From Anaerolineae bacterium (GTDB lineage: Bacteria > Chloroflexota > Anaerolineae > B4-G1 > DUEL01), in assembly GCA_041082215.1 (NCBI GenBank), contig JBDOIF010000008.1:70036-123262 (forward strand): a DNA stretch of 53,227 bases. Reading direction: 5' to 3'. The stretch's first letter is position 1. Each line of letters opens with the position of its first letter. Under the pieces are notes generated by a model. It had not been told where the DNA came from, made no database searches, and was given only the letters and a program-made list of their open reading frames with translations. Below, in pieces: positions 8,292 to 52,874 of this stretch. The position numbers and the translations under genes are program-made.

Positions 8292-11200
8292 ATGCGTTGC
8301 GTGCGGTGTGGGTTTGAGAACCCCGAAGGGAGCCTTTTCTGCGGTCGGTGCGGAAGGGAGTTAAAGGGGATGCCCTCCTCCCCGCCCGGTGAACGGCGCC
8401 TGGTCACCATCCTCTTTGTCCACGTCGAGGGATTGCTGACCGTCTCCGAACAACTCGACCCCGAGGTCGCTTTCACCATCGTCAGTGCCTGCGCCGAGGC
8501 CCTTTCTATGCCGGTCTATCGGTACGGCGGGACGGTGGATAAGTTCATCGGCCCGGAACTGATGGCCGTCTTCGGCGCTCCAGAGGTGCACGAAGACGAC
8601 GCCGCCCGCGCGCTCTGGGCCTCCCTGGATATGATCGAGGCGCTCGAACGGTTCAACCAGGCCTATCATAGCCTGCTGCCAGGGCCGCTGGCCATCCGGT
8701 GCGGGGTCAATACGGGGATGGTCTTTGCCGGCGACGTGGGCGCACCGGGACTTCGGGCATTCACCGTCATCGGCGACGCCGTCAATCTGGCCAGCCGGCT
8801 GGCTCACCTGGCGGAACCCGGCCGGGTGTTCGTGGGAGAAGCCACCTACCGGCAGGCCCAGCGCCTTTTCTACTTTCAGCCTCTGCCCCCCATCTCCGTT
8901 CGTGGCCGGCAGGAAGAGGTCCTGGTACACGCCCTGCTGGGAGCGCGGGAAGGGTACTGGCGGGCCTGGGGGATCAGCGGGCTTTCCAGCCCCCTAGTGG
9001 GCCGCCAGCGGGAGATCGGCATCCTGCAGGATCATCTGCTCGCGCTGTCGGCCGGGAAGGGAGGGGTTGTCTCCCTGATCGGTGAGGCCGGGCTGGGCAA
9101 ATCCCGCCTGACAATGGAGATCCGCTCCGCCAACCAGGAGCTGCGCTGGCTGGAGGGCCGGAGCCTGTCCTTTCAGAGCGATCAGCCCTACTTTCCTTTC
9201 CGAAACCTGGTCCAGCGGTATACAGGTATTGACGAGGCGACGCCGCCAGCCGATGCGGACGAGCGGCTTTGTGAGGCTATCTCCCGCTTTGCCTCCGACC
9301 AGTTCGACCAGGTCTATCCCTTCCTGGGCTATATCCTCGGCATCCTTCCGGACAAGGACCACGCCGCCGTGCTGGAGCCCCTTTCGGGCGAGGGACTGCA
9401 ACGGGGCCTCCTTCGCGCCCTGAGAATTCTCTTGAAAGGAATGGCGGAGGACCGCCCAACAGTGGTCGTGATGGAGGACCTGCACTGGGCCGACAGAAGC
9501 TCTCTGGACCTGCTTGCCCGTCTAATGCCTATGGCGGCGGATTCCCCCCTCCTCTTCCTGCTCCTCCTTCGCCCGGAGACCGGGAGCGGCCTGTTACAAT
9601 GGGTGCGCAAGGAGGGAAAACAGACGAACCGCTACGCTGAAATTCTGCTCTCCCCCCTCTCCCCCCAGGAAAGCGTAACCCTGGTCGCAAACCTGCTGCG
9701 GACAGACCGGATCCCCCAGGCCCTCCAGGAACAGATCCTGGAAAAAGCAGAGGGGAATCCCCTCTTTATGGAAGAAATCGTCCGAACGCTGATTCAGGAT
9801 GGGGTACTGGCAGAACGGGAGGGGCGGTGGGAGGTGGCGCGGGAAGTGCGGATCGTTCACATTCCCGACACCCTCCGCGGCCTTCTGGCAAGCAGGGTGG
9901 ACGGGCTGGAGCCGGAGATCCGTCGGACGCTGCGCCAGGCCGCTGTCATCGGGCGCGTCTTCCCCGAACGGGTGCTGGCCGCCGTGGCGGGCAATGGGAA
10001 GGAATTGGCCCAGCATCTGCGGGTGCTGCTGGACCGGAACTTTATCCGGTATTACCGGCTGGAGGGGGAGCAGGGAAGGGCCTTTATTTTCAACCATGCC
10101 CTGACCCACGAGGCCACCTATGAGGGAATTCTGATCGAGGAGCGTCGCCTCCTCCATCGGCGGACGCTGGAGGAGATGGAGAGGCTTTACGCTGGCCGGC
10201 TTGAAGCCCTCTACGCCACCCTCGCCCGCCACGCCTATCTCGGCGAGGTGTGGGATAAGGCGGCCTGCTATCTCCATCTCGCGGGCGATCGGGCCAAAGC
10301 CGCCTACGCTCTCCCCGAGGCCGTGCACCATTATCAGAGGGCGATGGGGATTATCCAGGAGTACGGCGTGAAGCTGGACCGGGAACGGATCGCCGATCTC
10401 TACCACGAGTGTTGCAGCGCTCAGATCCAACTGGGCGACTACAGGGCCGCGCGGGTGGTCTGCAATGTGCTGATGGAGACGGCGGAGCGGCTGAACGATC
10501 CGTACCTCCGGGGACATGCGCTGCGGGCGGCGGCCCTTATCGCCGCCTACACGGGAGATACAGTGGCCCAGGTCTCCAGCGCACAGGCAGCCTGTCGGGA
10601 GCTGGAGCGGGCAGGCGCCGACTGGAGCCGGGGCACGGCGCTCTTCCTCCTGGCCCTGGGCCTCTTCAAATCCGGCCGGCTGGATGAAGCCGGTGCCGCT
10701 ATCGAGAAAGGCCTGCAACTGGTGGGGGACACCCGTCGCTGGCCAGGATACGATCCCAGGAGTGAAGCGCTGTTCTACGCCGGCCTGATCGCCATCGTTC
10801 AGGGTCGGCTGGATGTGGCGCTGGAAAGGCTGGAATCGGGCATCGCATTGACCGAAAGGACAGGGGAGCAGTCCCTCAGGGGGTTCTGTACGAACTTTGC
10901 CGGCCTGGCTTATGGCTTGAGGGGAGAGTACGCCCGCGGCCTGGAAAAGGCAGAGGAGGGGAAGCGGTTGGGAATGGAGGCGGACCTTCCTCTGGTCACC
11001 GAGTCCGCCTCCGCCTGCGCGGCGTGGATCTGTGCTCTGAGCGGATGCTTTGGGGAAACCTTTCGCGCGGCCCTCCCCCTGGCATTCCGAAAGCCTGCCT
11101 CTCTGGACGCCCGGGCCATCGCCTGCTTGGCTCTGGGGGACGCCTGCCTGGGCACCCTGGAGTTCGAGGAGGGGATGCGATACTATCAGCAGGCCCTGGA

Positions 11201-11762
11201 GATCGCCGGGCTGTCCCACATCGTCACGGCTTCGGCAATGCGGGGGATCGGCCTGGCCCACGTGCTGCTGGGGAACCCCCAACAGGGTATCCCGTTTCTG
11301 GATAACAGCCTCTCCGCCACCACCTCCCTGGGCCTGAAGTGGTTCCGCGCCCAGATACTGCGCGATATGGCCTGGGTACATCTCCGGTCGGGCGATCGGG
11401 CTGCTGCGGAGAGCTTCGCCGGAGAGTTGCTGGCTCTGGCGGAAGAGGGGGACTATCGGGAGCTGATCGGTTGGGGCTACTTCCTTCGGGGGTCGGCCCG
11501 TGGAGACGGGGCGGACATCCGCCGCGGGCTGGAGAGCGGGATGGAGCTGGGCAGTCTCCTACTACAGTGGGCGGCAGGGGAGGCGCTGGTCGCTCTGACC
11601 GGCGACGAAAAGGGGCGAGCAGCCGCACGGACAGCGGTGCAGGCTATCGCCGAGGGCCTTCCACCGCAGCGACGGGCCGCCTTTCTGAACCGGGAACCGG
11701 TCCGTGCCATACTGGAAGGCGAAAGCCGGGAGCATTCGGGATCGGAACGGTCGGCAATGTAA
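8292..11762 (+). CDS. Zn-ribbon / class III cyclase-like / AAA ATPase / TPR protein with degenerate cyclase site
   Basis: CxxC..CxxC N-terminus, ERRLVTILF, GDAVNLASRL, GEAGLGKS, EDLHWAD, GNPLF, helical repeats. Confidence 0.9.
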   Translation: MRCVRCGFENPEGSLFCGRCGRELKGMPSSPPGERRLVTILFVHVEGLLTVSEQLDPEVAFTIVSACAEALSMPVYRYGGTVDKFIGPELMAVFGAPEVHEDDAARALWASLDMIEALERFNQAYHSLLPGPLAIRCGVNTGMVFAGDVGAPGLRAFTVIGDAVNLASRLAHLAEPGRVFVGEATYRQAQRLFYFQPLPPISVRGRQEEVLVHALLGAREGYWRAWGISGLSSPLVGRQREIGILQDHLLALSAGKGGVVSLIGEAGLGKSRLTMEIRSANQELRWLEGRSLSFQSDQPYFPFRNLVQRYTGIDEATPPADADERLCEAISRFASDQFDQVYPFLGYILGILPDKDHAAVLEPLSGEGLQRGLLRALRILLKGMAEDRPTVVVMEDLHWADRSSLDLLARLMPMAADSPLLFLLLLRPETGSGLLQWVRKEGKQTNRYAEILLSPLSPQESVTLVANLLRTDRIPQALQEQILEKAEGNPLFMEEIVRTLIQDGVLAEREGRWEVAREVRIVHIPDTLRGLLASRVDGLEPEIRRTLRQAAVIGRVFPERVLAAVAGNGKELAQHLRVLLDRNFIRYYRLEGEQGRAFIFNHALTHEATYEGILIEERRLLHRRTLEEMERLYAGRLEALYATLARHAYLGEVWDKAACYLHLAGDRAKAAYALPEAVHHYQRAMGIIQEYGVKLDRERIADLYHECCSAQIQLGDYRAARVVCNVLMETAERLNDPYLRGHALRAAALIAAYTGDTVAQVSSAQAACRELERAGADWSRGTALFLLALGLFKSGRLDEAGAAIEKGLQLVGDTRRWPGYDPRSEALFYAGLIAIVQGRLDVALERLESGIALTERTGEQSLRGFCTNFAGLAYGLRGEYARGLEKAEEGKRLGMEADLPLVTESASACAAWICALSGCFGETFRAALPLAFRKPASLDARAIACLALGDACLGTLEFEEGMRYYQQALEIAGLSHIVTASAMRGIGLAHVLLGNPQQGIPFLDNSLSATTSLGLKWFRAQILRDMAWVHLRSGDRAAAESFAGELLALAEEGDYRELIGWGYFLRGSARGDGADIRRGLESGMELGSLLLQWAAGEALVALTGDEKGRAAARTAVQAIAEGLPPQRRAAFLNREPVRAILEGESREHSGSERSAM

Positions 11763-38032: not shown

Positions 38033-40420
38033 TCATCGCTCCGTCTCCACCCGGTACCCTCGCCCGTCGCTCACCACCTCCACCGTCCCGTCCCGGTCGG
38101 TGCGATAGACCAGCACCCCCTCCCCCAGCCGGTCCAGCATCTCCACGTGAGGATGGCGGAAGCGATTCTCGACCCCCACCGAAATCACCACCACCTCCGG
38201 ATCCACCGCCTCCAGGAAGGGTTCTGTCGTGGACCCCCCGTCCCCGTGGTGGGCCGCTCTGAGGATGGTACAATCCAGCCACGCCCCCTCCGACACCAGC
38301 CGGCCCTCCACCGCCGCGCTGATGTCTCCGGGCAACAGGAAACAGATCCCGCCGTAATCCAGCCGGAGCACCAGCGAGCGGTCGTTGGTGCTGGCATCGG
38401 TCTCATCCGGGCCAGGGTGGAGGATCGTGAGGAGCAATCCCTCATCCAGCCAGAACCGCAGCCCCGTCTCCCCCCGCCAGACCGGCGCGCCGGACCGCTC
38501 CACCACTTCCCGCCAGCGGGTGCAGAGCCGGGTGCGGCACCCCAGGTCCCGCTCGACCACTCCATCCACCCGGTATCGCTCCAGCACCGGGATCAGCCCC
38601 GCCATCACGTCGTCGTCGGGGTGGGAGAGGATCACCAGGTCGAGGCGGTGGTCCCAGAAGGGGAGGCGACGGCCCAGATGGGCCAGGAGCCGGGAGGGGC
38701 TGGGGCCGCCGTCTATCAGCACCTGACGGCCGGAGGGGGTGCGGATGAAGACGGCGTCCCCCTCCCCCACGTCCAGGAAGGCGACGTGGAGGCGGCCGTC
38801 GGGGAGGGCGCGCCAGGCGGCAGCGGTCAGGATGAGGAGGAGGGCAGAAGCAGCCAGCACCGTCCGGTCGCTCGCACGGCTGGTGAAGCTGCTCCAGACA
38901 GAGCGAACGCGGTCCCCCAACGCCGCCCGGCGGTCGGCGGGCCGGTAGAGCCACCAGGTAACCGTACCGAGCAGCCCGTAGAAGGCCCAGACCATCCACC
39001 CCTCCATCCGTCCCAGATCAACCCAGGCGTAAGGGGCGCGGGCGGTGAGGCGGACGGTCTCGATGGTGTAGGTGAGAGGGAGCCAGGCCACCCACCCCAG
39101 CAGCCGCCCGGCGGGAAGCCAGGCCAGTCCGACCACCGTTGCCAGCCCGCCCCAGATCATCACCGCTGGCTGGACGGGGAGGATGAGCAGGTTGGTGAGG
39201 AGGGTGATCAGAGAGAGGCGGTGGAAGTAGTAGAGGATGATGGGAGTGGTGGTCAATTGGGCGGCCAGAGTGACCAGCAGTGCCTCAGAGATCCAGCCGA
39301 CGGCCCGCCGGGCCTGCCTGCGGGAGGTGACGCGGCTCAGAAGCCGGACCGCGCCCCGCTCCAGGCGCTCGGTGTAGAGGATCAGGCCGACAGTGGCGGC
39401 GAAGCTGAGCTGGAAGCCCACGTCCCAGAGGACGAAAGGGTTGAGGGCGGTCATCAGGACGGCGGCCCCTGCCAGGGAGGCAGGGGCGAAGGTGGCGCGG
39501 CCCAGGCGCTTCCCCCAGAGGTAGAGGCTGCCCATAATCGCCGCCCGCACCACGGCGGCGGAGGCCCCCACGAAGAGGGTGTAGAGGACCACCCCGCCGA
39601 TGGCGATCCAGGTGGACCGCTTCTGGCCCGCCAGCCTGCGGGAGAGACTGGCGAAGATGCCGGAGATGATGGTGATGTTGAAGCCGGAGATGGCGATGAT
39701 GTGGGCGGTGCCGGTGGCGGAGAAATCCTCCATCAGGTCGGCAGGGATGGTGGACTCGATCCCCAGCAGGATGCCGGTAAGCAGGGAGGCGGCCGGTTCG
39801 TGGAGAACCGCGGCGATGACGGCCTGGGCGCGGTGCTTGAGGGCCAGGAGTCCGGCATAGAGAGGGCTGCCCTCCCCGCCGCCGATCCGGGTCGCCCGGG
39901 CCTGCCGCACCAGCGAGTACACCCCCTGCCGGGCCAGGTAGTCCCGGTAGGAAAACTCCTCCCACTCCGGCGGGGTCTCCAAAAGCCCCACCACCCGTAG
40001 CCGGTCGCCATAGGCGAAGGCGGGATAGCGGTCCACCTTCACCAGCGCCAGCCCTGTCACCTCCAGCTCCTGCCCGTCGGGCAGGATGAGCCGCTCGGCC
40101 CGAAGGCGAAGGTTGGCGTAGCCCTCCCGCTCGTCCGGCTCCGCCACAACCACCCCCTCCAGCTCCACGCGCCCGACATCGTTGTAGGTCGCAAGCGTGT
40201 GGGCGTCGAAGCGGGGGAGGGAAAGGAGCAAACGGCCCGCCCCCAGCGCCAGGGCCACCAGGCAGGCGCAGAGGAGCCGGGAGCGGCGGGAGCCCAGCCA
40301 GCCGATCAGGCCGACCAGACCCCCCAGGCCGAGGAGCAGGAGGAGCTGCCAGGGCGGGGAGAAGGCGCGAGCCAGCACGATGCCGGCCAGCCACGAAGCA
40401 GCCAGATAGACAAGGGTCAT
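38033..40420 (-). CDS. comEC: ComEC/Rec2 competence protein
   Basis: OB domain, GTAHIIAISGFN, RAAIMG, GFQLSFAAT, LDVGEGDA, HHG, HPH. Confidence 0.95.
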   Translation of the reverse strand: MTLVYLAASWLAGIVLARAFSPPWQLLLLLGLGGLVGLIGWLGSRRSRLLCACLVALALGAGRLLLSLPRFDAHTLATYNDVGRVELEGVVVAEPDEREGYANLRLRAERLILPDGQELEVTGLALVKVDRYPAFAYGDRLRVVGLLETPPEWEEFSYRDYLARQGVYSLVRQARATRIGGGEGSPLYAGLLALKHRAQAVIAAVLHEPAASLLTGILLGIESTIPADLMEDFSATGTAHIIAISGFNITIISGIFASLSRRLAGQKRSTWIAIGGVVLYTLFVGASAAVVRAAIMGSLYLWGKRLGRATFAPASLAGAAVLMTALNPFVLWDVGFQLSFAATVGLILYTERLERGAVRLLSRVTSRRQARRAVGWISEALLVTLAAQLTTTPIILYYFHRLSLITLLTNLLILPVQPAVMIWGGLATVVGLAWLPAGRLLGWVAWLPLTYTIETVRLTARAPYAWVDLGRMEGWMVWAFYGLLGTVTWWLYRPADRRAALGDRVRSVWSSFTSRASDRTVLAASALLLILTAAAWRALPDGRLHVAFLDVGEGDAVFIRTPSGRQVLIDGGPSPSRLLAHLGRRLPFWDHRLDLVILSHPDDDVMAGLIPVLERYRVDGVVERDLGCRTRLCTRWREVVERSGAPVWRGETGLRFWLDEGLLLTILHPGPDETDASTNDRSLVLRLDYGGICFLLPGDISAAVEGRLVSEGAWLDCTILRAAHHGDGGSTTEPFLEAVDPEVVVISVGVENRFRHPHVEMLDRLGEGVLVYRTDRDGTVEVVSDGRGYRVETER

Positions 40421-44576: not shown

Positions 44577-44623
44577 GGCCGGAAGGAACCTTGAGCAAAA
44601 GGGCTCGCCTTCCGGCCTTTTTT
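44577..44623 (+). terminator. Leader terminator/attenuator hairpin
   Basis: GGCCGGAAGG...CCTTCCGGCC followed by T6, between the promoter and the first gene. Confidence 0.75.
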
Positions 44624-44654
44624 GTTTCCGGGCCTTCGTTTCCGGGAGGGAGAT

Positions 44655-45080
44655 ATGTTGAACGTCGTCATCGTCGAGGGATATGTGACCAGCAAAATCT
44701 GGCGCTGGAGCGGGGACCTCTGCTTCCGGCTGGCGTCGTATCGGGATTCACACCTGCCGCAGAAGCCGCCGCCTCCTCCGGGGACCAATCACGATCAGAC
44801 GGCGGATTATATGACGGTGCGGGTCCTCGGAGGGGCGCCGGGAGGGGTGCCGGTGGCGATCCAGCCCGGGCAGAGGGTACGCATCCACGGTTTCCTGGGC
44901 AGCCGCCCCTGGCGACGGACGCTGGCCGAGGTAGCACAGTTCACCCAGGGGCAACCCGTCCGCTGGGCATCGGGCTTCGACCCCGCCCAGGCAATCCTGG
45001 AAGATGAGGTGGTAGACGTGATCGCCGAACGGGTCATCGCCCTGGCAGCGCCATCTGGGGAGGGACCTGGGGAAATGTAA
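44655..45080 (+). CDS. Divergent SSB-like OB-fold protein
   Basis: MLNVVIVEGYV..FRLA..DYMTVRV..GQRVRIHGFL..VIAERV pattern resembles the SSB OB fold; GGGAGG RBS; no acidic DIPF tail. Confidence 0.6.
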   Translation: MLNVVIVEGYVTSKIWRWSGDLCFRLASYRDSHLPQKPPPPPGTNHDQTADYMTVRVLGGAPGGVPVAIQPGQRVRIHGFLGSRPWRRTLAEVAQFTQGQPVRWASGFDPAQAILEDEVVDVIAERVIALAAPSGEGPGEM

Positions 45081-45436: not shown

Positions 45437-45883
45437 ATGGAGGACATCTTATCAACGGTACTGTCTTCGGCCCTTGTGCTGGTAGTGGTGGTTCTGATCC
45501 GCCACTGGGGAGGGCCGTCGGTCGCCCGTCGGCCGGCGGTGGCAGGCGTGCTTGTGGCCCCGGCCACTCCCTTCGCCACAGCCTGCCTGGCCCACAGACG
45601 GGACCCCTCGTCCTGTCTGAGTTGCGGGCTGTGCCAGCAGTGCTGGGGCCTGAGGAGCGTACCGGCAGCGGAGGAGATCGAGGGCAGGCCCGGCGGCATC
45701 GCCGACAGGAGCAGGGCTTCGCTCGATCCGGTGGTGAATCTGGAGCGGGTCGAGCGGCTCCTGAAAGCGGCGGACGGCCTGCTGAGCCGATTCCTCGAAC
45801 TCCTCAACGTGCTGCCGGTCCAGCAGATCGTCCACGCCTTCGGACGGTTGCTCCAGCTCCTGCTGGCGCGTGCCTCCGGGTAG
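45437..45883 (+). CDS. Hypothetical membrane-anchored protein with Cys cluster
   Basis: Strong AAAGGAGAGG RBS, N-terminal TM, CLSCGLCQQC. Confidence 0.6.
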   Translation: MEDILSTVLSSALVLVVVVLIRHWGGPSVARRPAVAGVLVAPATPFATACLAHRRDPSSCLSCGLCQQCWGLRSVPAAEEIEGRPGGIADRSRASLDPVVNLERVERLLKAADGLLSRFLELLNVLPVQQIVHAFGRLLQLLLARASG

Positions 45884-45968
45884 GTCCGTGGAGATCGGAG
45901 CCCCTCTGCGGGCGGGAGTGCCCTCCCACTCCTGCCCGATCCAAACAAGCAACCAGCAACCAGCGCCA

Positions 45969-46637
45969 ATGAACGGTCTGCTCGACATTCTGATTCTCAC
46001 CACCAATGGCCTGTTGGTGATCCTGTACTGGCTCTGGGCCCACCTGCCGGTGGCCCTCTCCTGGGGGCTTGCGGCGGGGGTGACGATGCTGCTGGACACC
46101 GACGTATCCCGTCGGGCCGGCCACCGGCCTGCCCGCTACGGACGCAGGGCTGTTCAGAGGGAGTCACGCACCGCCTACCTGGGCACCCCCCTCCTGGCCC
46201 TCCTCTGGACGGCCGTTGGGCTGGCCGCCCCGCCCCCCATCCCCCTCATCGGCCTGGCGATGTGGGCCTGCCTGCTGCTGGCGCCGCTGACCGTTCCGAT
46301 GGAGCGGGAGCCGCTGCTTTCCCGCCTCAAGTGGATGCTGGCGGTCTACGCAGCGGCAGCGGGGGGGTTCCTCCTGCTCCTGCGCTCCCAGCTTTCCCCT
46401 GCCGCTCTGGCCGCCTGGTCCCAAAGCCTGGGACGGGCAGGGGCAGGGGAGGCGCTGGAGGCGGCGGTGGTCTCCTCGGTGGTCCCCTACGCGGCGCTGA
46501 TGCTCTGGGTCATCGGCCCGCTGATGTTCTTTGGCTACGTCGCCCAGCGGTTCGCCGTCCACGCCAAGACGCGGGTCAGCCCCTGGGCAACGGTGGAGGA
46601 GCGCATCCGCCAACTGCGGGCGCGTGGGGAGGAATGA
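45969..46637 (+). CDS. Hypothetical polytopic membrane protein
   Basis: About 5-6 hydrophobic segments; ends 3 nt before the ATPase start. Confidence 0.75.
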   Translation: MNGLLDILILTTNGLLVILYWLWAHLPVALSWGLAAGVTMLLDTDVSRRAGHRPARYGRRAVQRESRTAYLGTPLLALLWTAVGLAAPPPIPLIGLAMWACLLLAPLTVPMEREPLLSRLKWMLAVYAAAAGGFLLLLRSQLSPAALAAWSQSLGRAGAGEALEAAVVSSVVPYAALMLWVIGPLMFFGYVAQRFAVHAKTRVSPWATVEERIRQLRARGEE

Positions 46638-46640
46638 GCG

Positions 46641-49600
46641 ATGGCGCGAAAATCCGGCCCCGTCTCTTCTGACCTGGCACCGGACGATCTGGTCGTCCTG
46701 GACAACGGCATCCGGTTCGCGGAGGATCAGGACCGGATGGAGTACCTCTGGTTCCACCTGCGGGAGCTGGAGGACGGGCGGGAATACGACCTGTGGCGGG
46801 TGGTGCGCCTGGGACTCCTGCGTTATCTCCCGCAGGAGCACCGTCAGGAGCCTGGCCTGCCGGAGAAGATGCGCGCCGCGCTGGTCGGGCTGTACGGCTC
46901 CCGGCGGGCCAGCTACGATCTGGTGGAAATCAAGGCGGGAATCTTCAACCCACCGCTGGGCGTGCTCCAGATGTTCGGCGCCGTCGGCATCGCCGAATCC
47001 CAGGAAGAGGCCATCCGCAACGCCGAGCTGGGAATGGCTGCGGTGCAGGGAGCCATTGCTAACTTCGAGCAGTCGCGGCTGATCCCGCTTTCGGTCCAGA
47101 TCGCTGACTGGCTCCGGCGAGCGCTGGCGGAGTTCCCCCACGTCATCGTGACCATCGGCCACCCGGAACCCCGCGCCGGCAGGCGGGGGATGGGCCGGGA
47201 AGGGCCGGGGGAGAGGGACCGGAGCACTGTCCCCCAGGATGCGATGCTCCCGCCCCAGCAGGGGGAAATGCTCTGCCGGGCGCTGGCGGCCGTCCAGGAA
47301 GAGTTTCTGATGGTGACCCTGGCCTCCCGCGTTCTCCAGCAGGACCTGGCGCGGATGCTGGCCGGGATCGCGGCGGAGGCGAGCGTCCCTGCCAGCCAGA
47401 TGACGGGGGTGGAGGCGATCACCACGGGGATCGCCCTGCCGGTCAGCCTGGCCGAGAGCCTGGGGCGGAGCGCGGTGTCGGCCTACGGCCAGACCCAGGG
47501 CACGGCCGTCTCCGACTCCTTCGCCGACTCCGAGGCGACCAGCCACGTGGAGGGCCACGCCACCACCGTCGGCCACGCGGTGACCGACGGGACGGCCCAC
47601 ACCGAGGGGCACGCCACCACGTCGGGGAGTTCGGTGACGACCAGCGTCGTCACCTCCGAGGGCACGGCCCATACCGAGGGGACGGCCCATACCGAGGGGA
47701 CGGCCCACACAGAGGGGACGGCGCATACTTCCGGTAGCTCGTCGTCCGTGTCGAGTGCTTCCGGAAGCAGCTGGGGGGTGATACAGGGACTAGCCAACAC
47801 CACAGGGACGGCCCACACAGAGGGGACGGCCCATACCGAGGGGACGGCCCACACAGAGGGGACGGCGCATAGTACCGGAGGCAGCCAGGGGACCACCACG
47901 ACGCGCGGGGCGTCTTTCGGCGCTCATATAGGGCAGCACGTCGGTGGCTCTATCGGCGGAGGCATCGTCCCGGGCACCTTGAGTTCTGGCACGGATTACG
48001 GGGTTGAGGGATCGTTCAACTCCAGCCAGTCGGTCAGCAATTCTCACGAATGGAGTTCGTCCACCTCTACCGCCGATACGTCCTCGGCGGCGGACACCAC
48101 CTCTGCCGCCGATACGTCCTCGGCGGCAACTACGCAGTCAGTCGCTACAAGTGTTGGCGGATTCAGCTCAACCTCGGTGTCATCTTCGTCCTTCTCCTCT
48201 GTCAGCCGCTCCATCGCCGACACTGTCTCCGCCGCCGACACGACCTCCCAGGCCGATACCACCTCTCGCTCGGTCAGCCGGGGTGTCTCCCACGGTTCCT
48301 TCTCGTCCACCACCCACTCCGTCGCCGACACCCTCTCCCACGCCGAGACCCGCTCCTGGGCACGCACCACCAGCGTTGCCGACGGGACGGCCCACGGGAC
48401 CACCCGCGCCCACGGCGTCTCCCGCTCCTCCGGCACAGCGGTCGGGCGGAGCCTGGGGGTGATGCGGGGGACGGGATTCGGCGCGGCGGCGGTCCCTTCC
48501 TTCGCCCTCACCCGCTCCTACCAGTGGTGGAACGACCAGGCGGTGCAGCTTGCCCAGCTCCTTCGCGCCCAGGAGGAGCTCTTGCGACAGGCCACCCTCG
48601 AAGGGGCTTTCCTGACCGACGTGTACATCCTCACCCGCACTGAGCGGGGGGCGGCGGCGGCGGAGGTGGCGGTCCGGCAGGCGTTTCAGGGCGTCGGGCC
48701 CCTGGTGGTCACGCCCGTCCAATCCCGCGTCCTGCGCCTTCCCCAGGAGCAGGCATACATCCGCGCCCACGCGATGGCCTTCACCCCCTCGACGCGCCGC
48801 GAGCGTGTGGCGGGCGCGCTGGAGGCGTACAGGGACTCGACGCTGCTTTTGCCCACGCAGCTGGCAGCTTATGTCGCCCCCGTCCTCTTCGAGGAAGGGC
48901 TTTCCGTCACCACCCAGGAGCGCATCCCCGCCTTCGCCTTCGTGCCGGATATGCCCGGCGATGTCGTGCTGGCCCACCAGTGGTCCACCGAACGGGCGGA
49001 GCTGACCGGGGCCCCGCTGCGGATGTCGTCGGACCGCTTCTTCCACACCGTCTTCGCCGCCGACACCGGCTTCGGCAAGACCGTCGCGGCGGAGCGGCTG
49101 GTGGTGGAGACGACCCGGAAGTGGCACTTCCGCACGGTGGTGCTGGACTTCGGGGCAGGGTGGCGCAGGCTGCTCAACGCTCCCCTGGGAGAGCCGGGGC
49201 GGGTGGAGGTGTGGCAGCTCTTCCCCGGCGCAGCGGTCCCCTTCCGCTGGAACCCCTGGCAGGTGGGGAAGCGGATTCAACCGGAGCGACAACTGGTGGC
49301 GACGTGCGAGATTTTCAAGAACGCCGGGCGGATGGGCCCCCGGCAGTTGGGCTTTATGCGCCGGGCGGCCCGACAGCTCTACCTGGAGCACGGCATACTG
49401 ACCTCCGACCGGGAGGTCTGGGCCGACACGAGGTGGAATACGGTGCGCGACGCCGACGAGGAAGAGGCCATCAACGCCGCCCGGCGGGAACGGGGAATGG
49501 CGGAGCGGACCTGTGTCGGCGACCACCTGGGCGACCTGGAAGGGTTTGAGCGCCAGGCACTGGCCGTCCACCGCTCCCGGCGGGTGGGTATGGCCGCCTG

Positions 49601-50399
49601 GGTGGAGCGGCTGGGGTCGTACAAGCCGGAACTGGAGAAGCGGCGCGACCAGGCGTCGCTCCAGTCGCTGGAAGGAGTCCTGCTCCGGCTGGAACCGTTC
49701 ACCCAGGGCGAGATGGCCCGGATGTACGGCTCCGGCGAGGACACGCTGGCGGTGGAGGACCTGGGGCTCCTGGGGCCGTCCGACGACCCCTGGGGGGTCT
49801 CCATCCTGGAGGGCGGGGCGGAGCTGGACGAGTACGCCAAGGCCGCCATCCTGGGGCTGGTGGCCTGGCACCTGTACAACGACGCAGTGGTGCGACGGCG
49901 GCAAAACATCGGCAGGTCCACCCCCGACCCGACGCTCCAGATTGTGTTCGAGGAGGCCAACAAGGTGCTGACAGGGGTGGAGACAGACACCTCGGAGAAC
50001 CAGACGGGCGGGGCGACGACGGTGGAGCTCTTCCAGGCGATGTGGCGGGACGGGCGGAAGTACCGGATTTTCCTCCACCCGGTGGTGCAGACGGTCTCCG
50101 AACTCCCGCCGGGGATCCTCTCCTCCTGCAACAACGGCTTTTTCGGGCAGACGAAGAACCCGAAGGACCGGGACCTGATTATGGCGCACCTGGCCTTCAG
50201 CGAGAAGGGGTTTACCGACGAGGACTACAAACGGTTCCTCAGCCGGATGCCGGCGGCAATGGCGGTGTGCAAGCTGGGGTATTCCCAGGACATCGTCCAT
50301 ACCACGCCGTTCCTGGTGCGGCCGCTGATGGTCCCGGCCCGCGAGCCGACCGACGAGGAAATCCACGAGGCGATGCGCCTGATGGGGAAAGCCAGGTAG
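46641..50399 (+). CDS. HerA/VirB4-like P-loop ATPase with ~350-aa Ser/Thr/Gly-rich symmetric insert
   Basis: HTVFAADTGFGKT Walker A (49059-49082), VVLDF, IVFEEAN Walker B, RDGRKY Arg finger, VVQ; insert at aa 267-619. Confidence 0.85.
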   Translation: MARKSGPVSSDLAPDDLVVLDNGIRFAEDQDRMEYLWFHLRELEDGREYDLWRVVRLGLLRYLPQEHRQEPGLPEKMRAALVGLYGSRRASYDLVEIKAGIFNPPLGVLQMFGAVGIAESQEEAIRNAELGMAAVQGAIANFEQSRLIPLSVQIADWLRRALAEFPHVIVTIGHPEPRAGRRGMGREGPGERDRSTVPQDAMLPPQQGEMLCRALAAVQEEFLMVTLASRVLQQDLARMLAGIAAEASVPASQMTGVEAITTGIALPVSLAESLGRSAVSAYGQTQGTAVSDSFADSEATSHVEGHATTVGHAVTDGTAHTEGHATTSGSSVTTSVVTSEGTAHTEGTAHTEGTAHTEGTAHTSGSSSSVSSASGSSWGVIQGLANTTGTAHTEGTAHTEGTAHTEGTAHSTGGSQGTTTTRGASFGAHIGQHVGGSIGGGIVPGTLSSGTDYGVEGSFNSSQSVSNSHEWSSSTSTADTSSAADTTSAADTSSAATTQSVATSVGGFSSTSVSSSSFSSVSRSIADTVSAADTTSQADTTSRSVSRGVSHGSFSSTTHSVADTLSHAETRSWARTTSVADGTAHGTTRAHGVSRSSGTAVGRSLGVMRGTGFGAAAVPSFALTRSYQWWNDQAVQLAQLLRAQEELLRQATLEGAFLTDVYILTRTERGAAAAEVAVRQAFQGVGPLVVTPVQSRVLRLPQEQAYIRAHAMAFTPSTRRERVAGALEAYRDSTLLLPTQLAAYVAPVLFEEGLSVTTQERIPAFAFVPDMPGDVVLAHQWSTERAELTGAPLRMSSDRFFHTVFAADTGFGKTVAAERLVVETTRKWHFRTVVLDFGAGWRRLLNAPLGEPGRVEVWQLFPGAAVPFRWNPWQVGKRIQPERQLVATCEIFKNAGRMGPRQLGFMRRAARQLYLEHGILTSDREVWADTRWNTVRDADEEEAINAARRERGMAERTCVGDHLGDLEGFERQALAVHRSRRVGMAAWVERLGSYKPELEKRRDQASLQSLEGVLLRLEPFTQGEMARMYGSGEDTLAVEDLGLLGPSDDPWGVSILEGGAELDEYAKAAILGLVAWHLYNDAVVRRRQNIGRSTPDPTLQIVFEEANKVLTGVETDTSENQTGGATTVELFQAMWRDGRKYRIFLHPVVQTVSELPPGILSSCNNGFFGQTKNPKDRDLIMAHLAFSEKGFTDEDYKRFLSRMPAAMAVCKLGYSQDIVHTTPFLVRPLMVPAREPTDEEIHEAMRLMGKAR
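47664..48275 (+). repeat. Intragenic 18-bp/hexapeptide tandem repeats (TAHTEG blocks and mirrored TxSxAD blocks)
   Basis: ACGGCCCA(T/C)AC(C/A)GAGGGG units at 47664-47735 and 47808-47879; TSSAAD-like units at 48060-48131 and 48204-48275. Confidence 0.9.
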
Positions 50400-50434
50400 G
50401 GGCGACCGGCAGGTCGCCCGTACAGGTCGCCCGT
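50396..50434. repeat. GTAG-type REP palindrome overlapping the ATPase stop codon
   Basis: GTAGGGGCGACC-ggca-GGTCGCCCGTAC (50396-50423) followed by a repeated half AGGTCGCCCGT. Confidence 0.8.
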
Positions 50435-50444
50435 GAGGGAGCCG

Positions 50445-51860
50445 ATGCGGATCATTCTGGCAGGACCGGATGAAGCAGAGCTGACGGGAGCGGCCTACCC
50501 GGCCTTTGCGGTGGCCGGGGTGGAGGTGCTGGCAGCGGTCGGGGCGGCGGAGAAGCTGTCCGACCTGGCCCCCGTCTTCCCCGACGCGGTGGCTGTGGTC
50601 CAGGCCGACCTCTACGCCACGCCGGAGGAGGCGGTGGAGGCGCTGGAGGGGTTGCCTGTTCGGGTGGCCGTTGTGCTTCCGCCCCGGTGGGCGGCGGCTC
50701 AGGGGAAGTTCGCCGCCCTTCCCAACCTGGTGGCGGGCTTCACCGCGCCGATTCCCTGGCCGGTGGTGGCAGCGGAGGTGAAGACACAGGCTGGTCTGGG
50801 CGACCTGCCGGTCGCTCCAACATCACAGGCGGAGGCAGGGGCGCAGCCCGGCGTTGGGGCGACCTGCCGGTCGTCCCAACTGGACGGCGCACCAGTCGCT
50901 CCCCAGGCAGCCCTACGGCCCACCCCCGACCCCGCCGGCAGGGCCAGGGGTGGAGGGGGTCGGCTGGTTGCCCCACGGGGCGAGGCCCCTAGGCCACGCC
51001 TCGAGCGGCTCGCCGCGTGGCGAGCCGTGGCCCTCTGGTCCGGCCCGGCGGGAGGCGTGGGGAAGACGAGCCTGGCCCTGCTGCTGGCGGCATACGCGGC
51101 GGAGAGGGGAGCGGAGCCGCTGTTGCTGGCCCTATCAGAGCCGGCCGTGTCGGCCTATCTGGGGCTGAACCGTGTCCCCAACGTCACCGCGTTCTTCGAG
51201 ACCGGCGATCTGAGCCGGTCCGTCCAGATACTGAGGTGGGAGGAGGGTGGGAGAGGGATGCTGCGGGTGGCCCTCGGTCCGGCCCGGCCCCGCGACGGGG
51301 CGGTGGGACGGGAGCAGGTGGCGGCGCTGATGGAGGCGGCGAAGGGCGCTGCACCTCTGGCCGTCGCCGACCTGCCCACACTCCCGCCCGGAGGCAACGC
51401 CTGGAGCCTGGAGCCGCTGCTCCACGCCGGGGTCGTCATCCTGGTGGCCGCTCCCACACCGGCGGGCGTGGCGGCTGCGGTCGAGGCGCTGGCGACGCTG
51501 CGGGACATCGGGGCCTCCGGCCAGGTCCTCCTGGCCGTCAACAGACGGACACCGGGTGGGCTGGGCCTGCCGGAGTTTGCCGATGGGGTGCGGGGCCTGT
51601 GGGGGGGCTGCCCGCCGACGGTGGAGGTCCCCTATGCGCCCGGGATGGCTGCGGCGATGGACCGGGGGGAGCTGCCGGGTATGGGCGACATGCCGGTCGC
51701 CCCTGCGCTGGCTGAACTGGCGGAGGCCGCTCTGGGCATCCCCCGGCCCCGGCCGGAGGCGGAGCGGGAAGGAACCGGGACGGGTAAGGGCGACCGGCCG
51801 GTCGCCCCTGCCCGCCCCCGCCGCCTGGGGCGGCTGATCAGCGTGGAGGTGGTGGACTGA
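50445..51860 (+). CDS. TadZ/CpaE-like MinD/ParA-family protein with degenerate receiver-like N-terminus
   Basis: WSGPAGGVGKTS deviant Walker A, VADLP, LAVNR, VPY; Pro/Ala linker. Confidence 0.72.
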   Translation: MRIILAGPDEAELTGAAYPAFAVAGVEVLAAVGAAEKLSDLAPVFPDAVAVVQADLYATPEEAVEALEGLPVRVAVVLPPRWAAAQGKFAALPNLVAGFTAPIPWPVVAAEVKTQAGLGDLPVAPTSQAEAGAQPGVGATCRSSQLDGAPVAPQAALRPTPDPAGRARGGGGRLVAPRGEAPRPRLERLAAWRAVALWSGPAGGVGKTSLALLLAAYAAERGAEPLLLALSEPAVSAYLGLNRVPNVTAFFETGDLSRSVQILRWEEGGRGMLRVALGPARPRDGAVGREQVAALMEAAKGAAPLAVADLPTLPPGGNAWSLEPLLHAGVVILVAAPTPAGVAAAVEALATLRDIGASGQVLLAVNRRTPGGLGLPEFADGVRGLWGGCPPTVEVPYAPGMAAAMDRGELPGMGDMPVAPALAELAEAALGIPRPRPEAEREGTGTGKGDRPVAPARPRRLGRLISVEVVD

Positions 51861-52306
51861 TGGGCGAGGTCTGGGGGCAGGTCCGTCCGGTTCCCCGTCT
51901 GCTGGCCAGCCTCCCCTGCGAGGACGCGGCGGTGTCGCAGGGGGTGGCCGACGGCCGCGTGACCCTGCAGCGGGTCTTTTTCGACCTCTATGCGGCCCGC
52001 TTCCCGGCCGGGTTCGATCGGATGACGGTGGTCAGCTTCTGGGCCGGAGGGGAGGGGGCCTACCGGACGGCTGTGCGGCTCCTGGCCCCCGGCGGGACGG
52101 AGGTGGCCCGGGGGGAGGCGGAGGTGACCGCCGTGCCCCCACCGGGGACAGCGGTGCAGGTGGTCTATTTCCCCACCCTGGTCCTGCCGGAACCGGGTCG
52201 GTACACGGTAGAGGTTCTTCTGGACGGCACGCCGGTCCACGCTTACAGCCTGACCGTCGTCGGACCGGAGGAATCCAGCAGGGAGGGTGCAGATGCGAAA
52301 AGGTGA
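51860..52306 (+). CDS. Hypothetical beta-sandwich protein (DUF6941-like)
   Basis: LPCEDA..DGRVTL..VF, LPEPGRYTVEVLLDG; TGATG coupling to the upstream gene. Confidence 0.6.
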   Translation: MGEVWGQVRPVPRLLASLPCEDAAVSQGVADGRVTLQRVFFDLYAARFPAGFDRMTVVSFWAGGEGAYRTAVRLLAPGGTEVARGEAEVTAVPPPGTAVQVVYFPTLVLPEPGRYTVEVLLDGTPVHAYSLTVVGPEESSREGADAKR

Positions 52307-52874
52307 GCAAATCGGGATGTGGGTGGCCATCGGTATCCTGGGGGTGTGGCTTCTGGTGCTGACTGTGGTGATAGCGGGGGAGTTCGCCGCCGTCAACCGG
52401 GTGCTGCGGGGGGAGGTGGAGGCGGAGGCGCTGCCCGCTGCACCGGGCGAGCCGACCCCCTGGTGGGGCGGGACGGAAGCGACAATATCCCCGCCCACGG
52501 CCTCGCTGCCGGAAGGAATCTCCGTGGGGGTCGCCGGGGTGCGGGTCCTCTCCGATACCCTGGCGATGACGGTGACGGTCCGCTCCGGCGGGGCGGGCGA
52601 CCTGCTGGTCGAGCCGCCGGTGGTGGTGGATGAGGCGGGCCGGGCCTACCCGGTGACGCCCGACAGCCTGGAGGCGGCGCGGTATGCCTTCCTGGACCTG
52701 GTGACGCGGGGGCAGGCAGGGGCAGAGCTGGTCTTTGCCGGAACCCCACCGGAGGGAGCACGGCTGACGCTGGTCTTTAACCCCAACCAGGAGCCAACCG
52801 ACATCCTGGCCCCCCGTGTCGAGGTGCCGGTGCCGGTGATCGCCGCTCCAGCGCCAGGTTCGGAAGGAGGATAA
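52293..52874 (+). CDS. Hypothetical membrane-anchored protein with extracellular Ig-like domain
   Basis: N-terminal TM, Pro/Thr linker, beta-rich domain (VVDEAGRAYP, AELVF, LTLVF). Confidence 0.7.
   Translation: MRKGEQIGMWVAIGILGVWLLVLTVVIAGEFAAVNRVLRGEVEAEALPAAPGEPTPWWGGTEATISPPTASLPEGISVGVAGVRVLSDTLAMTVTVRSGGAGDLLVEPPVVVDEAGRAYPVTPDSLEAARYAFLDLVTRGQAGAELVFAGTPPEGARLTLVFNPNQEPTDILAPRVEVPVPVIAAPAPGSEGG

Follow-up and report, generated by a model that had tools for sequence, protein, structure and literature searches.

A serine-rich VirB4/HerA-type ATPase family of Anaerolineae, encoded in Tad-like clusters, carries an insert that very probably forms one very long antiparallel beta-hairpin

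The window analysed here, a 53,227-nucleotide (nt) stretch of contig JBDOIF010000008.1 from the Anaerolineae bacterium assembly GCA_041082215.1, contains an open frame on the forward strand (46641..50399, +, including the stop codon) that encodes a 'serine-rich' VirB4/HerA-type ATPase of 1252 amino acids (aa), named P0001 in our protein set. Its residues 267–619 (47439..48497, +) form an insert which very probably folds as one two-stranded antiparallel beta-hairpin, residue i standing opposite residue 883 − i. The hairpin comprises about 155–165 paired residues per strand and lies between the N-terminal domain and the ATPase domain. A sequence-only reading of the window had proposed a giant beta-hairpin from the mirror symmetry of the insert, and five independent sequence tests together with the secondary structure assigned by AlphaFold2 support it. 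We accept the hairpin because these tests are of different kinds and agree despite the relatedness of the homologues.

The composition and layout described in the sequence-only reading were reproduced. The 353 aa of the insert include 74 Ser, 63 Thr, 48 Gly, 44 Ala, 28 Val and 21 His, with Ser plus Thr accounting for 39%. Between aa 251 and 686 the only prolines are P267, P444 and P619; P444 lies within GGSIGGGIVPGTLSSG, and the midpoint of the insert, (267 + 619)/2, falls at 443. The outgoing arm (aa 268–423; 47442..47909, +) contains two blocks of four TAHTEG-type hexads, at aa 342–365 (47664..47735, +) and aa 390–413 (47808..47879, +). The returning arm (aa 460–618; 48018..48494, +) contains two blocks of TxSxAD-type hexads, at aa 474–497 (48060..48131, +) and aa 522–545 (48204..48275, +), the second starting 144 nt after the first. 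The final hexad of each of these two blocks is degenerate. Between the arms lies the apex (aa 424–459; 47910..48017, +), a Gly/Val/Ile-rich amphipathic turn region with P444, flanked by F426, Y453 and F459. The sum of paired block boundaries is indeed 887 and that of the flanking prolines 886, and family-wide tests place the symmetry of this insert far beyond chance.

The hexads are also 18-nt tandem repeats at the DNA level, with 90% matches in the first arm and 71–82% in the second. Both arms contain a duplication of 48 aa with identical 144-nt spacing, whose copies share 93% DNA identity in the outgoing arm and 73–78% in the returning one. The two duplications (47661–47878 and 48065–48266) may differ in age, or gene conversion may have acted on one arm. 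The insert sequence is not an assembly artefact, because contigs of two other hot-spring DNA runs cover the gene completely (30/30 bins, zero insertions or deletions) and pieces bridge its repeat arrays. Two short contigs of the gene also occur in one metatranscriptome run, where DNA carry-over is possible, and we make no claim of transcription.

The protein matches the NCBIfam model NF033849 (ser_rich_anae_1, 'serine-rich protein') with 1178.5 bits against a cut-off of 650, aa 33–1244 aligning to model positions 1–1162 of 1163, and a profile search of the genome agrees; no Pfam family is matched at E ≤ 0.01. NF033849 is catalogued with its function uncharacterised, and is now read as a conserved ATPase-plus-hairpin family. 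Homologues were collected using the C-terminal 633 aa alone, without the insert, which yielded 448 proteins in one collection (the best 120 of the 448 were used), 374 cluster representatives in another and 64 further proteins in a third search. In 179 proteins of at least 950 aa the insert was mapped by its conserved flanks only (phmmer with query aa 200–275 and 610–700); both flanks were placed in 154 proteins, later 212 with the additions from the third search, and the face and charge-register tests used 211 unique inserts. Insert length varies from 187 to 767 aa across the 154 mapped homologues.

Named records of the family are mostly Anaerolineae, including the cultured Flexilinea flocculi, Levilinea saccharolytica and Leptolinea tardivitalis. 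Its distribution is patchy: members were found in 8 of 201 sampled genomes of the window's phylum and 13 of 121 of the class of Flexilinea flocculi. The two samples share one genome, listed with the same coordinates in both, which would put the window genome in that class too. The window genome encodes a second member on another contig (L005, contig 57; 2268–5732), a protein of 1154 aa with a 256-aa insert and arms of 126 and 129 residues. With their different arm lengths, the two paralogues of this cell may be suited to different spans. Two other records are unusual. The homologue P0004, 90% identical to the ATPase half of the query, has the NCBI label 'Armatimonadota bacterium', in conflict with the Anaerolineae assignment of the window genome and pointing to either a mislabelled bin or recent gene transfer; a further member (G231 contig 259, 5415–8681) contains one in-frame TGA, which may reflect a broken gene or a sequencing error.

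The two halves of the insert change together. The most hydrophobic 15-aa window is located at 0.45–0.55 of the insert in 129 of 154 homologues, about 20 being expected. In the 89 proteins whose insert has a single internal proline, the length of one arm tracks that of the other (r = 0.955); this set comprises 36 distinct arm-length pairs ranging from (91,95) to (383,383). Matched changes are visible even between close relatives, with arms of 177/175 in the query, 183/181 in P0008, 187/185 in P0013 and 126/129 in the query's own paralogue. Prolines outside the apex are mirrored as well, 28 of 34 in 17 proteins having a partner within 5 aa of the mirror position (5.4 expected). In three homologues (P0025, P0059 and P0015) a mirrored series of prolines with 11–13 aa spacing runs along both arms.

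Covariation points to the same arrangement. Mutual information with average product correction was averaged along antidiagonals in four insert-length classes; in the 243-aa class (33 unique inserts) the antidiagonal (L − 1) − 3 is the best of 264, with z = 7.2, and the best offsets for the four classes combined are −3, −5, −1 and −7, all of the same parity. The mean number of opposite-charge cross pairs per protein is 8.2 with offset −3 and 6.0 with −5, over a background near 3, and like-charge pairs are depleted at both offsets. Counting ties, the best offset is −3 in 153 and −5 in 49 of the 211 inserts. Charged cross pairs occur about three times per protein at odd offsets versus about 0.15 times at even ones; pairing is thus almost confined to odd offsets, and all charges therefore lie on one face of one sheet. 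Hydropathy has a period of 2.0, with a power of 5.7 and 6.4 in the two arms compared with 0.93 after shuffling (17.9 in the outgoing arm of the query). An alpha-helical heptad coiled coil was considered and rejected, as the period is 2.0 with no excess at 3.6 or 7 and AlphaFold2 assigns strands.

Neither independently varying arm lengths nor a lack of antiparallel contacts, both named in the sequence-only reading as contrary to a hairpin, was found. Its expected coevolution along i + j of about 887 held in part: the antiparallel signal is present, and its peak lies at i + j = (L − 1) − 3. In the query the pairing sum is 883 (881 for diagonal neighbours), four residues away from the proposed value, because covariation, His-Asp pairing and AlphaFold2 strands agree on it. 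The query has 10 His-Asp cross pairs at i + j = 883, 6 at 889 and 5 at 877. Along its whole arm run eleven His-acid pairs, including H344-D539, H350-D533 and H356-D527, which link the first TAHTEG block to the returning arm, and H392-D491, H398-D485 and H404-D479, which do so for the second. In the query fragment AlphaFold2 places strands at aa 282–313, 318–340, 347–376, 380–400 and 405–424 of the outgoing arm and at aa 463–477, 508–536, 543–565 and 570–601 of the returning arm, with boundaries that mirror about 883. The model of the 1128-aa homologue P0058 has long, mirrored strands at 303–364 and 368–378, then 392–402 and 406–467.

Assigning residues to faces by the −3 register separates two different surfaces along the stalk. 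The charged face consists of 13% Val, 12% His, 12% Gln, 11% Ser, 11% Thr, 9% Glu and 8% Asp, and the other, small face of 37% Ser, 21% Gly, 21% Thr and 13% Ala, making it 92% Ser/Gly/Thr/Ala and charge-free. Direct His·Asp pairs are enriched 5.5–6.2 fold on the charged face, and diagonal His·Glu pairs 2–3 fold. The small face favours Ala·Thr pairs (3.0–3.4 fold enriched) and Gly·Ser pairs (1.75–2.15 fold), with Gly·Gly (0.18), Ala·Ala (0.28) and Thr·Thr (0.43) depleted; these small-face preferences vanish or reverse at offsets other than −3.

Some observations weigh against the hairpin or its register. Unequal arms occur in three of the 36 length pairs from single-proline inserts, (130,288), (144,166) and (143,152), and with the tip taken as the hydrophobic window in all 154 proteins the arm correlation is only r = 0.44, because 25 proteins have this crude window off-centre. 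In the three smaller length classes the −3 or −5 antidiagonal ranks only within the top six. Smoothed hydropathy gives a weak mirror correlation, whose peak coincides with the midpoint in 40 of 154 proteins, the query not being one of these. The predicted local distance difference test (pLDDT) score of AlphaFold2 is very low in the insert, 25–44 in both P0058 and the query fragment, and the homologues are related to each other, so that counts overstate the number of independent events. The low pLDDT and the weak mirror-hydropathy result, along with the low-complexity composition and tandem DNA repeats, would suit a disordered low-complexity linker, a beta-solenoid or an amyloid-like repeat whose symmetry is accidental. 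We regard this as very improbable. Arm lengths co-vary over a fourfold range and prolines are mirrored; the antidiagonal covariation (z = 7.2), the register-specific charge pairing, the strict parity of the faces and the pair preferences seen at the −3 register only contradict it, because a disordered linker or a parallel solenoid predicts none of these signals.

Toward the tip of the hairpin the surface changes. The small face there is 36% Gly, 29% Ser and 13% Asn, and the other face 18% Val, 17% Gly, 14% Ala, 7% Leu, 5% Trp and 5% Ile. Around the geometric midpoint hydrophobic residues rise to 24–34%, Gly to 22–33% and Pro to 13%, while the share of Ser plus Thr drops to 11–15%, and aromatic residues peak at −15..−11 and +5..+19 relative to the midpoint. 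Apex hydrophobics share a face with the stalk charges in 193 of 211 inserts, occupy the opposite face in 3 and are undecided in 15 (193 of 196 decidable cases). The apex is probably membrane-seeking or partner-docking. In six homologues (P0150, P0156, P0182, P0018, P0011 and P0020) extra apex modules, either long Pro/Thr/Ala-rich linkers or apparently foldable segments, replace the simple Gly-rich turn.

The C-terminal region (aa 620–1252; 48498..50396, +) consists of a helical/beta linker followed by a VirB4/HerA/FtsK-type P-loop ATPase with Walker A DTGFGKT (aa 808–814; 49062–49082, +) and Walker B LQIVFEEA (aa 1099–1106; 49935–49958, +). The HerA/VirB4-like assignment made from the bare sequence is borne out by intact Walker motifs and by fold matches with Z of 24–28, obtained with aa 630–1110 of the P0058 model. 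In VIA-align these are DndH-C with Z 27.8 (348 aligned residues, root-mean-square deviation (rmsd) 3.2), VirB4 (4ag5) with Z 26.5 and HerA (9x1m) with Z 24.8, with TrwB at Z 22. Foldseek matches the C-terminal region of P0058 to HerA (E 9e-12), a profile of 50 homologues finds HerA/DUF87 chains in the PDB (E 3e-13), and the Walker Gly, Lys and Glu are invariant in the 50 aligned homologues. The ATPase scores only 18 bits with NCBIfam HerA_antiphage, for which the cut-off is 800. PADLOC gives no defence assignment, its HerA models reaching 16–27 bits over the Walker B region only, and PHROGs gives no phage assignment, with weak matches to the ATPase core only; the nearest Protein Atlas clusters are unnamed or DUF87.

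The N-terminal alpha/beta domain (aa 1–266; 46641..47438, +) has no PDB relative by sequence and no Pfam match. In the P0058 model it is confident (aa 41–275, pLDDT about 90), as is the C-terminal half. Full-length TrwK aligns loosely over model residues 38–1128 (Z 18, rmsd about 15 Å).

Our best overall explanation, held tentatively, is a ring ATPase with a joint coaxial beta-barrel stalk whose hydrophobic end is in a membrane. By analogy with its relatives the ATPase would form a ring, and the hairpins of its subunits would join edge to edge into a single stalk, about 45–55 nm long here and 25–100 nm family-wide at 2.7–3.4 Å per residue. The small polar face would line a narrow water-filled lumen, with the hydrophobic end embedded in the membrane. 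A 12-stranded barrel has a C-alpha radius near 11–15 Å; with 12 strands the lumen would be roughly 1.5–2 nm wide and lined by Ser, Thr, Gly and Ala. Such a stalk would couple the cytoplasmic motor to the membrane within a Tad-like (tight adherence) envelope machine, and may serve as a channel for an unfolded polymer. The sequence-only reading likewise envisaged a hexamer whose 12 strands would enclose a hollow conduit capable of spanning the envelope. The closed multi-subunit barrel itself is possible, a little short of an even call in our judgement; a conduit function is doubtful.

Several points count against this explanation. A 19-aa hydropathy scan of the ATPase protein finds no helical membrane segment, nor any signal peptide-like or N-terminal hydrophobic segment, and the hydrophilic arm has no evident route out of the cytoplasm across the cell's own membrane. 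Covariation and charge profiles contain no second, inter-subunit register; minor charge-profile peaks at +1, +3 and +9 result from the hexad period. The apex is modestly hydrophobic (Kyte-Doolittle mean near 1 over 15 aa), and its 8–10 alternating residues per strand are short for a bilayer, making docking to a protein conceivable. The strict small face with its fixed pairing code could mean packing in a solid stalk. The window copy is also the sole locus examined that lacks cpaB and cpaF, on a contig that ends 353 nt past the last open reading frame (ORF). The face pattern fits a pore-toxin-like stem, and equally a solid stalk or a lone anchored ribbon.

A lone ribbon is somewhat unlikely in our estimation. 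Each subunit's hairpin would then be a stiff twisted tether or molecular ruler that holds the ATPase ring at a set distance, its apex anchored in the inner leaflet of the cytoplasmic membrane or docked on the conserved polytopic membrane protein encoded upstream. All of the hairpin evidence applies to it equally; the His-Asp-Glu ladder could stabilise a solvent-exposed ribbon, the lack of any inter-subunit register and the short, moderately hydrophobic apex agree with it, and the membrane protein is the sole neighbour kept in 44 of 44 loci. However, with both faces exposed to water, the 92% Ser/Gly/Thr/Ala charge-free face of the 211 inserts would have no reason, free beta edges over 90–380 residues would generally tend to aggregate, and related ATPases assemble into ring oligomers, an arrangement that would bring six arms close together.

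The small face also raises the possibility, quite improbable in our view, that hairpins of two to six subunits pack by these faces into a solid or near-solid beta fibre with no transport lumen. The fibre would be a strut or needle with a hydrophobic point, bracing the Tad-like machine across a thick envelope or piercing a neighbouring cell. Size-matched Ala·Thr and Gly·Ser pairs and the depletion of Gly·Gly, Ala·Ala and Thr·Thr are what close packing would give, although packing between the two strands of one hairpin may also produce this code. Hydroxylated residues predominate on the small face (58% Ser plus Thr), which gains Asn at the tip; this suits a water-lined surface better, and by barrel geometry a closed 12-strand sheet of a hexamer cannot be solid. 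A further point in favour of the fibre is a Tad-like apparatus of Myxococcus that kills on contact, described in the accessible text of one report (PMC8460266).

The barrel stalk has its closest analogues among beta-pore-forming toxins. One face of their stems is polar throughout, and the other is hydrophobic only at the membrane end. As in protective antigen, CDTb, alpha-haemolysin and aerolysin, each subunit of the NF033849 family would contribute an amphipathic Ser/Thr-rich hairpin that is hydrophobic at the membrane end. Unlike in those toxins, the hairpin is inside a cytoplasmic-type ATPase without a secretion signal, and no sequence or fold relationship exists, no toxin fold being found among the structure matches. 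The mode of a secreted toxin does not apply, because the protein has no N-terminal hydrophobic segment and its ATPase flank would need cytoplasmic ATP. Toxin stems are also several-fold shorter than the 90–380 residues per strand of the family. Homology to CDTb was considered and rejected: the first arm matches CDTb and related chains at E 0.24–0.36, which is non-significant and was treated as compositional. In protective antigen, seven 2beta2-2beta3 loops form a 14-strand barrel that conducts unfolded protein, according to the accessible parts of two reports (PMC2706995, PMC2518729).

Other ATPases and ring proteins provide partial parallels. SMC/Rad50-type ATPases have a long out-and-back antiparallel arm with matched halves and a special turn motif (hinge or zinc hook), their arms being alpha-helical coiled coils that split the ATPase head. 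The family described here differs in having a beta ribbon between two whole domains and an ATPase of the VirB4/HerA type. It shares the C-terminal ATPase fold and Walker A/B motifs with VirB4 (TrwK) and HerA/DndH-type translocases; we know of no VirB4 or HerA with such an insert, and unlike type IV secretion VirB4 it has CpaB, CpaE and CpaF as conserved neighbours. Hairpins inserted in ring-type subunits also occur in SpoIIIAG, secretins and the FliF RBM3 beta-collar, to which the family is comparable, the joint vertical barrel being only inferred here. Hairpins of this type are short and extracytoplasmic and belong to rings of 15–34 subunits, unlike the arm described here, which reaches 380 residues per strand and is carried by a cytoplasmic motor presumed to be hexameric. 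For FliF, formation of the RBM3 beta-collar from hairpins in ring subunits is described in the available text of 10.1101/2024.07.30.605930.

The genomic context, missed by the sequence-only reading, is that of Tad-like pilus or secretion clusters: the ATPase-hairpin family is encoded in such clusters, with the window copy as the exception. The comparison covered 44 loci: the window, the paralogue in its genome, and 42 genome loci with a minimum length of 15 kb. A polytopic membrane protein is encoded upstream of the ATPase on the same strand in 44/44, and tblastn detects the 255-aa protein of the window in 39 loci. Directly downstream, 43 of the 44 encode CpaB (RcpC/SAF; TIGR03177), a CpaE/TadZ-type ParA-like protein and CpaF/TadA (T2SSE). 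Three further upstream genes without a known family recur in 39, 34 and 21 loci. No Flp-type pilin was found by a narrow motif scan of nine loci. The paralogous cluster of the window genome (L005 497–12019) encodes the membrane protein, the ATPase, CpaB, CpaE, CpaF, a TadB-like, a DUF6941-like and a TadC-like protein and a 149-aa protein; its T2SSF (TadB/TadC-like) matches, with 16.5 and 18.3 bits, are below the cut-off.

Around the ATPase gene the window copy retains a smaller set of genes. The 255-aa polytopic membrane protein, the conserved upstream partner (45870..46637, +), ends 3 nt before the ATPase start codon, has 4–5 hydrophobic 19-aa windows and belongs to no family in Pfam or NCBIfam. 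An ORF of 148 aa (45437..45883, +) overlaps its start; this product has an N-terminal hydrophobic segment, with hydrophobic windows at aa 3–21 and 34–52, a GC content at third codon positions of 0.83 and no match in Pfam or NCBIfam, and its membership in the system is uncertain. Downstream of the ATPase, a diverged CpaE/TadZ-like (ParA/MinD-type) P-loop protein of 475 aa (50433..51860, +) is 29% identical to CpaE of the paralogous cluster over 222 aa (E 2e-10) and has a weak CbiA match in Pfam (E 0.0066), below the cut-off. It is followed by a 148-aa DUF6941 protein (51860..52306, +; PF22091, 52.4 bits, cut-off 27), whose tblastn homologue in the paralogous cluster (L005 10326–10670) shows 38% identity (E 1e-11), and by a 195-aa protein with one N-terminal hydrophobic segment (window aa 13–31; 52287..52874, +), 62% identical over 52 aa to a tblastn homologue in that cluster (L005 11840–11983). 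All three of these downstream genes are thus also present in the paralogous cluster.

The window around the ATPase gene is otherwise ordinary chromosome. A scan of 29 ORFs of the window at E ≤ 1e-5 revealed neither a type IV secretion component such as VirB3/6/8 nor a relaxase or coupling protein, and a mobile-element context was rejected, as the scan of these ORFs found no integrase or relaxase. A gene for a single-stranded-DNA-binding (SSB)-like OB-fold protein lies at 44622–45080 (+; Pfam SSB E 0.07). SSB-like genes occur near six loci in addition to the window, the Pfam match passing only in Flexilinea flocculi (L051 283–780, E 6e-7), and could hint at handling of single-stranded DNA. Also in the window, 6 kb upstream of the ATPase gene, is a gene for a ComEC-type competence channel (38033–40420, −; Pfam Competence, 5.5e-57, and DUF4131). 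Beyond the end of the Flexilinea flocculi cluster lie a SMODS and SLATT pair, which are CBASS-like defence genes, and a Mutator-family transposase (L051 15314–18436). The window also encodes a 1156-aa adenylate/guanylate cyclase-AAA_16-TPR signalling protein (8292–11762, +), which seems ordinary and unconnected with the hairpin protein.

Tad clusters have been described in Anaerolineales (PMC4877987) and Chloroflexales (PMC7332563; 10.1101/2025.08.19.671072). The available portions of the first two reports list pilA, cpaB/E/F, tadB/C, tadZ, tadE and flp and no such ATPase, and those of the third do not mention one. A literature search, with subscription journals outside its coverage, returned no description of the NF033849 family or of a comparable hairpin. 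The kind of ATPase and the kind of gene neighbourhood were already known; new are the arm, its pairing code and its length range.

We further speculate, as a joint reading that is unlikely taken as a whole, that the ring motor builds its own trans-envelope channel, with six or more hairpins of 90–380 residues forming a beta-nanotube of 25–100 nm. It would have a Ser/Thr/Gly/Ala lumen, an outer His-Asp-Glu ladder that is possibly pH- or metal-sensitive, and a membrane-piercing end. Together with Tad-like components, this nanotube would move DNA or unfolded protein out of, or between, filamentous Anaerolineae cells. If so, it would be a candidate for the septal channels, topped by a hat-shaped cap, that cryo-tomography has revealed in Chloroflexales and that the accessible text presents as molecularly unidentified and without sepJ/fraC/fraD homologues (PMC7332563). 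A motor-fused beta-barrel conduit is without known counterpart, and should the tube exist it would constitute a secretion or junction device of a categorically new type.

Should the proposed structure hold, no other regular two-stranded beta element known to us would come close to it in length. It would have a readable pairing code, His·Asp on one face and Ala·Thr and Gly·Ser on the other, and a length tuned fourfold by evolution, and it would offer a natural model for the design of beta ribbons or nanotubes. Since the gene is present in cultured and harmless strains, the idea is directly testable. Little is known of the envelope biology of Anaerolineae, which abound in digesters, sediments and hot springs. 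For these bacteria the family would be an unrecognised core component of Tad-like machines, in which a motor is joined to a long stalk with a membrane-seeking tip, and a testable candidate for bridging thick multilayered envelopes or septa in monoderm-like filamentous cells.

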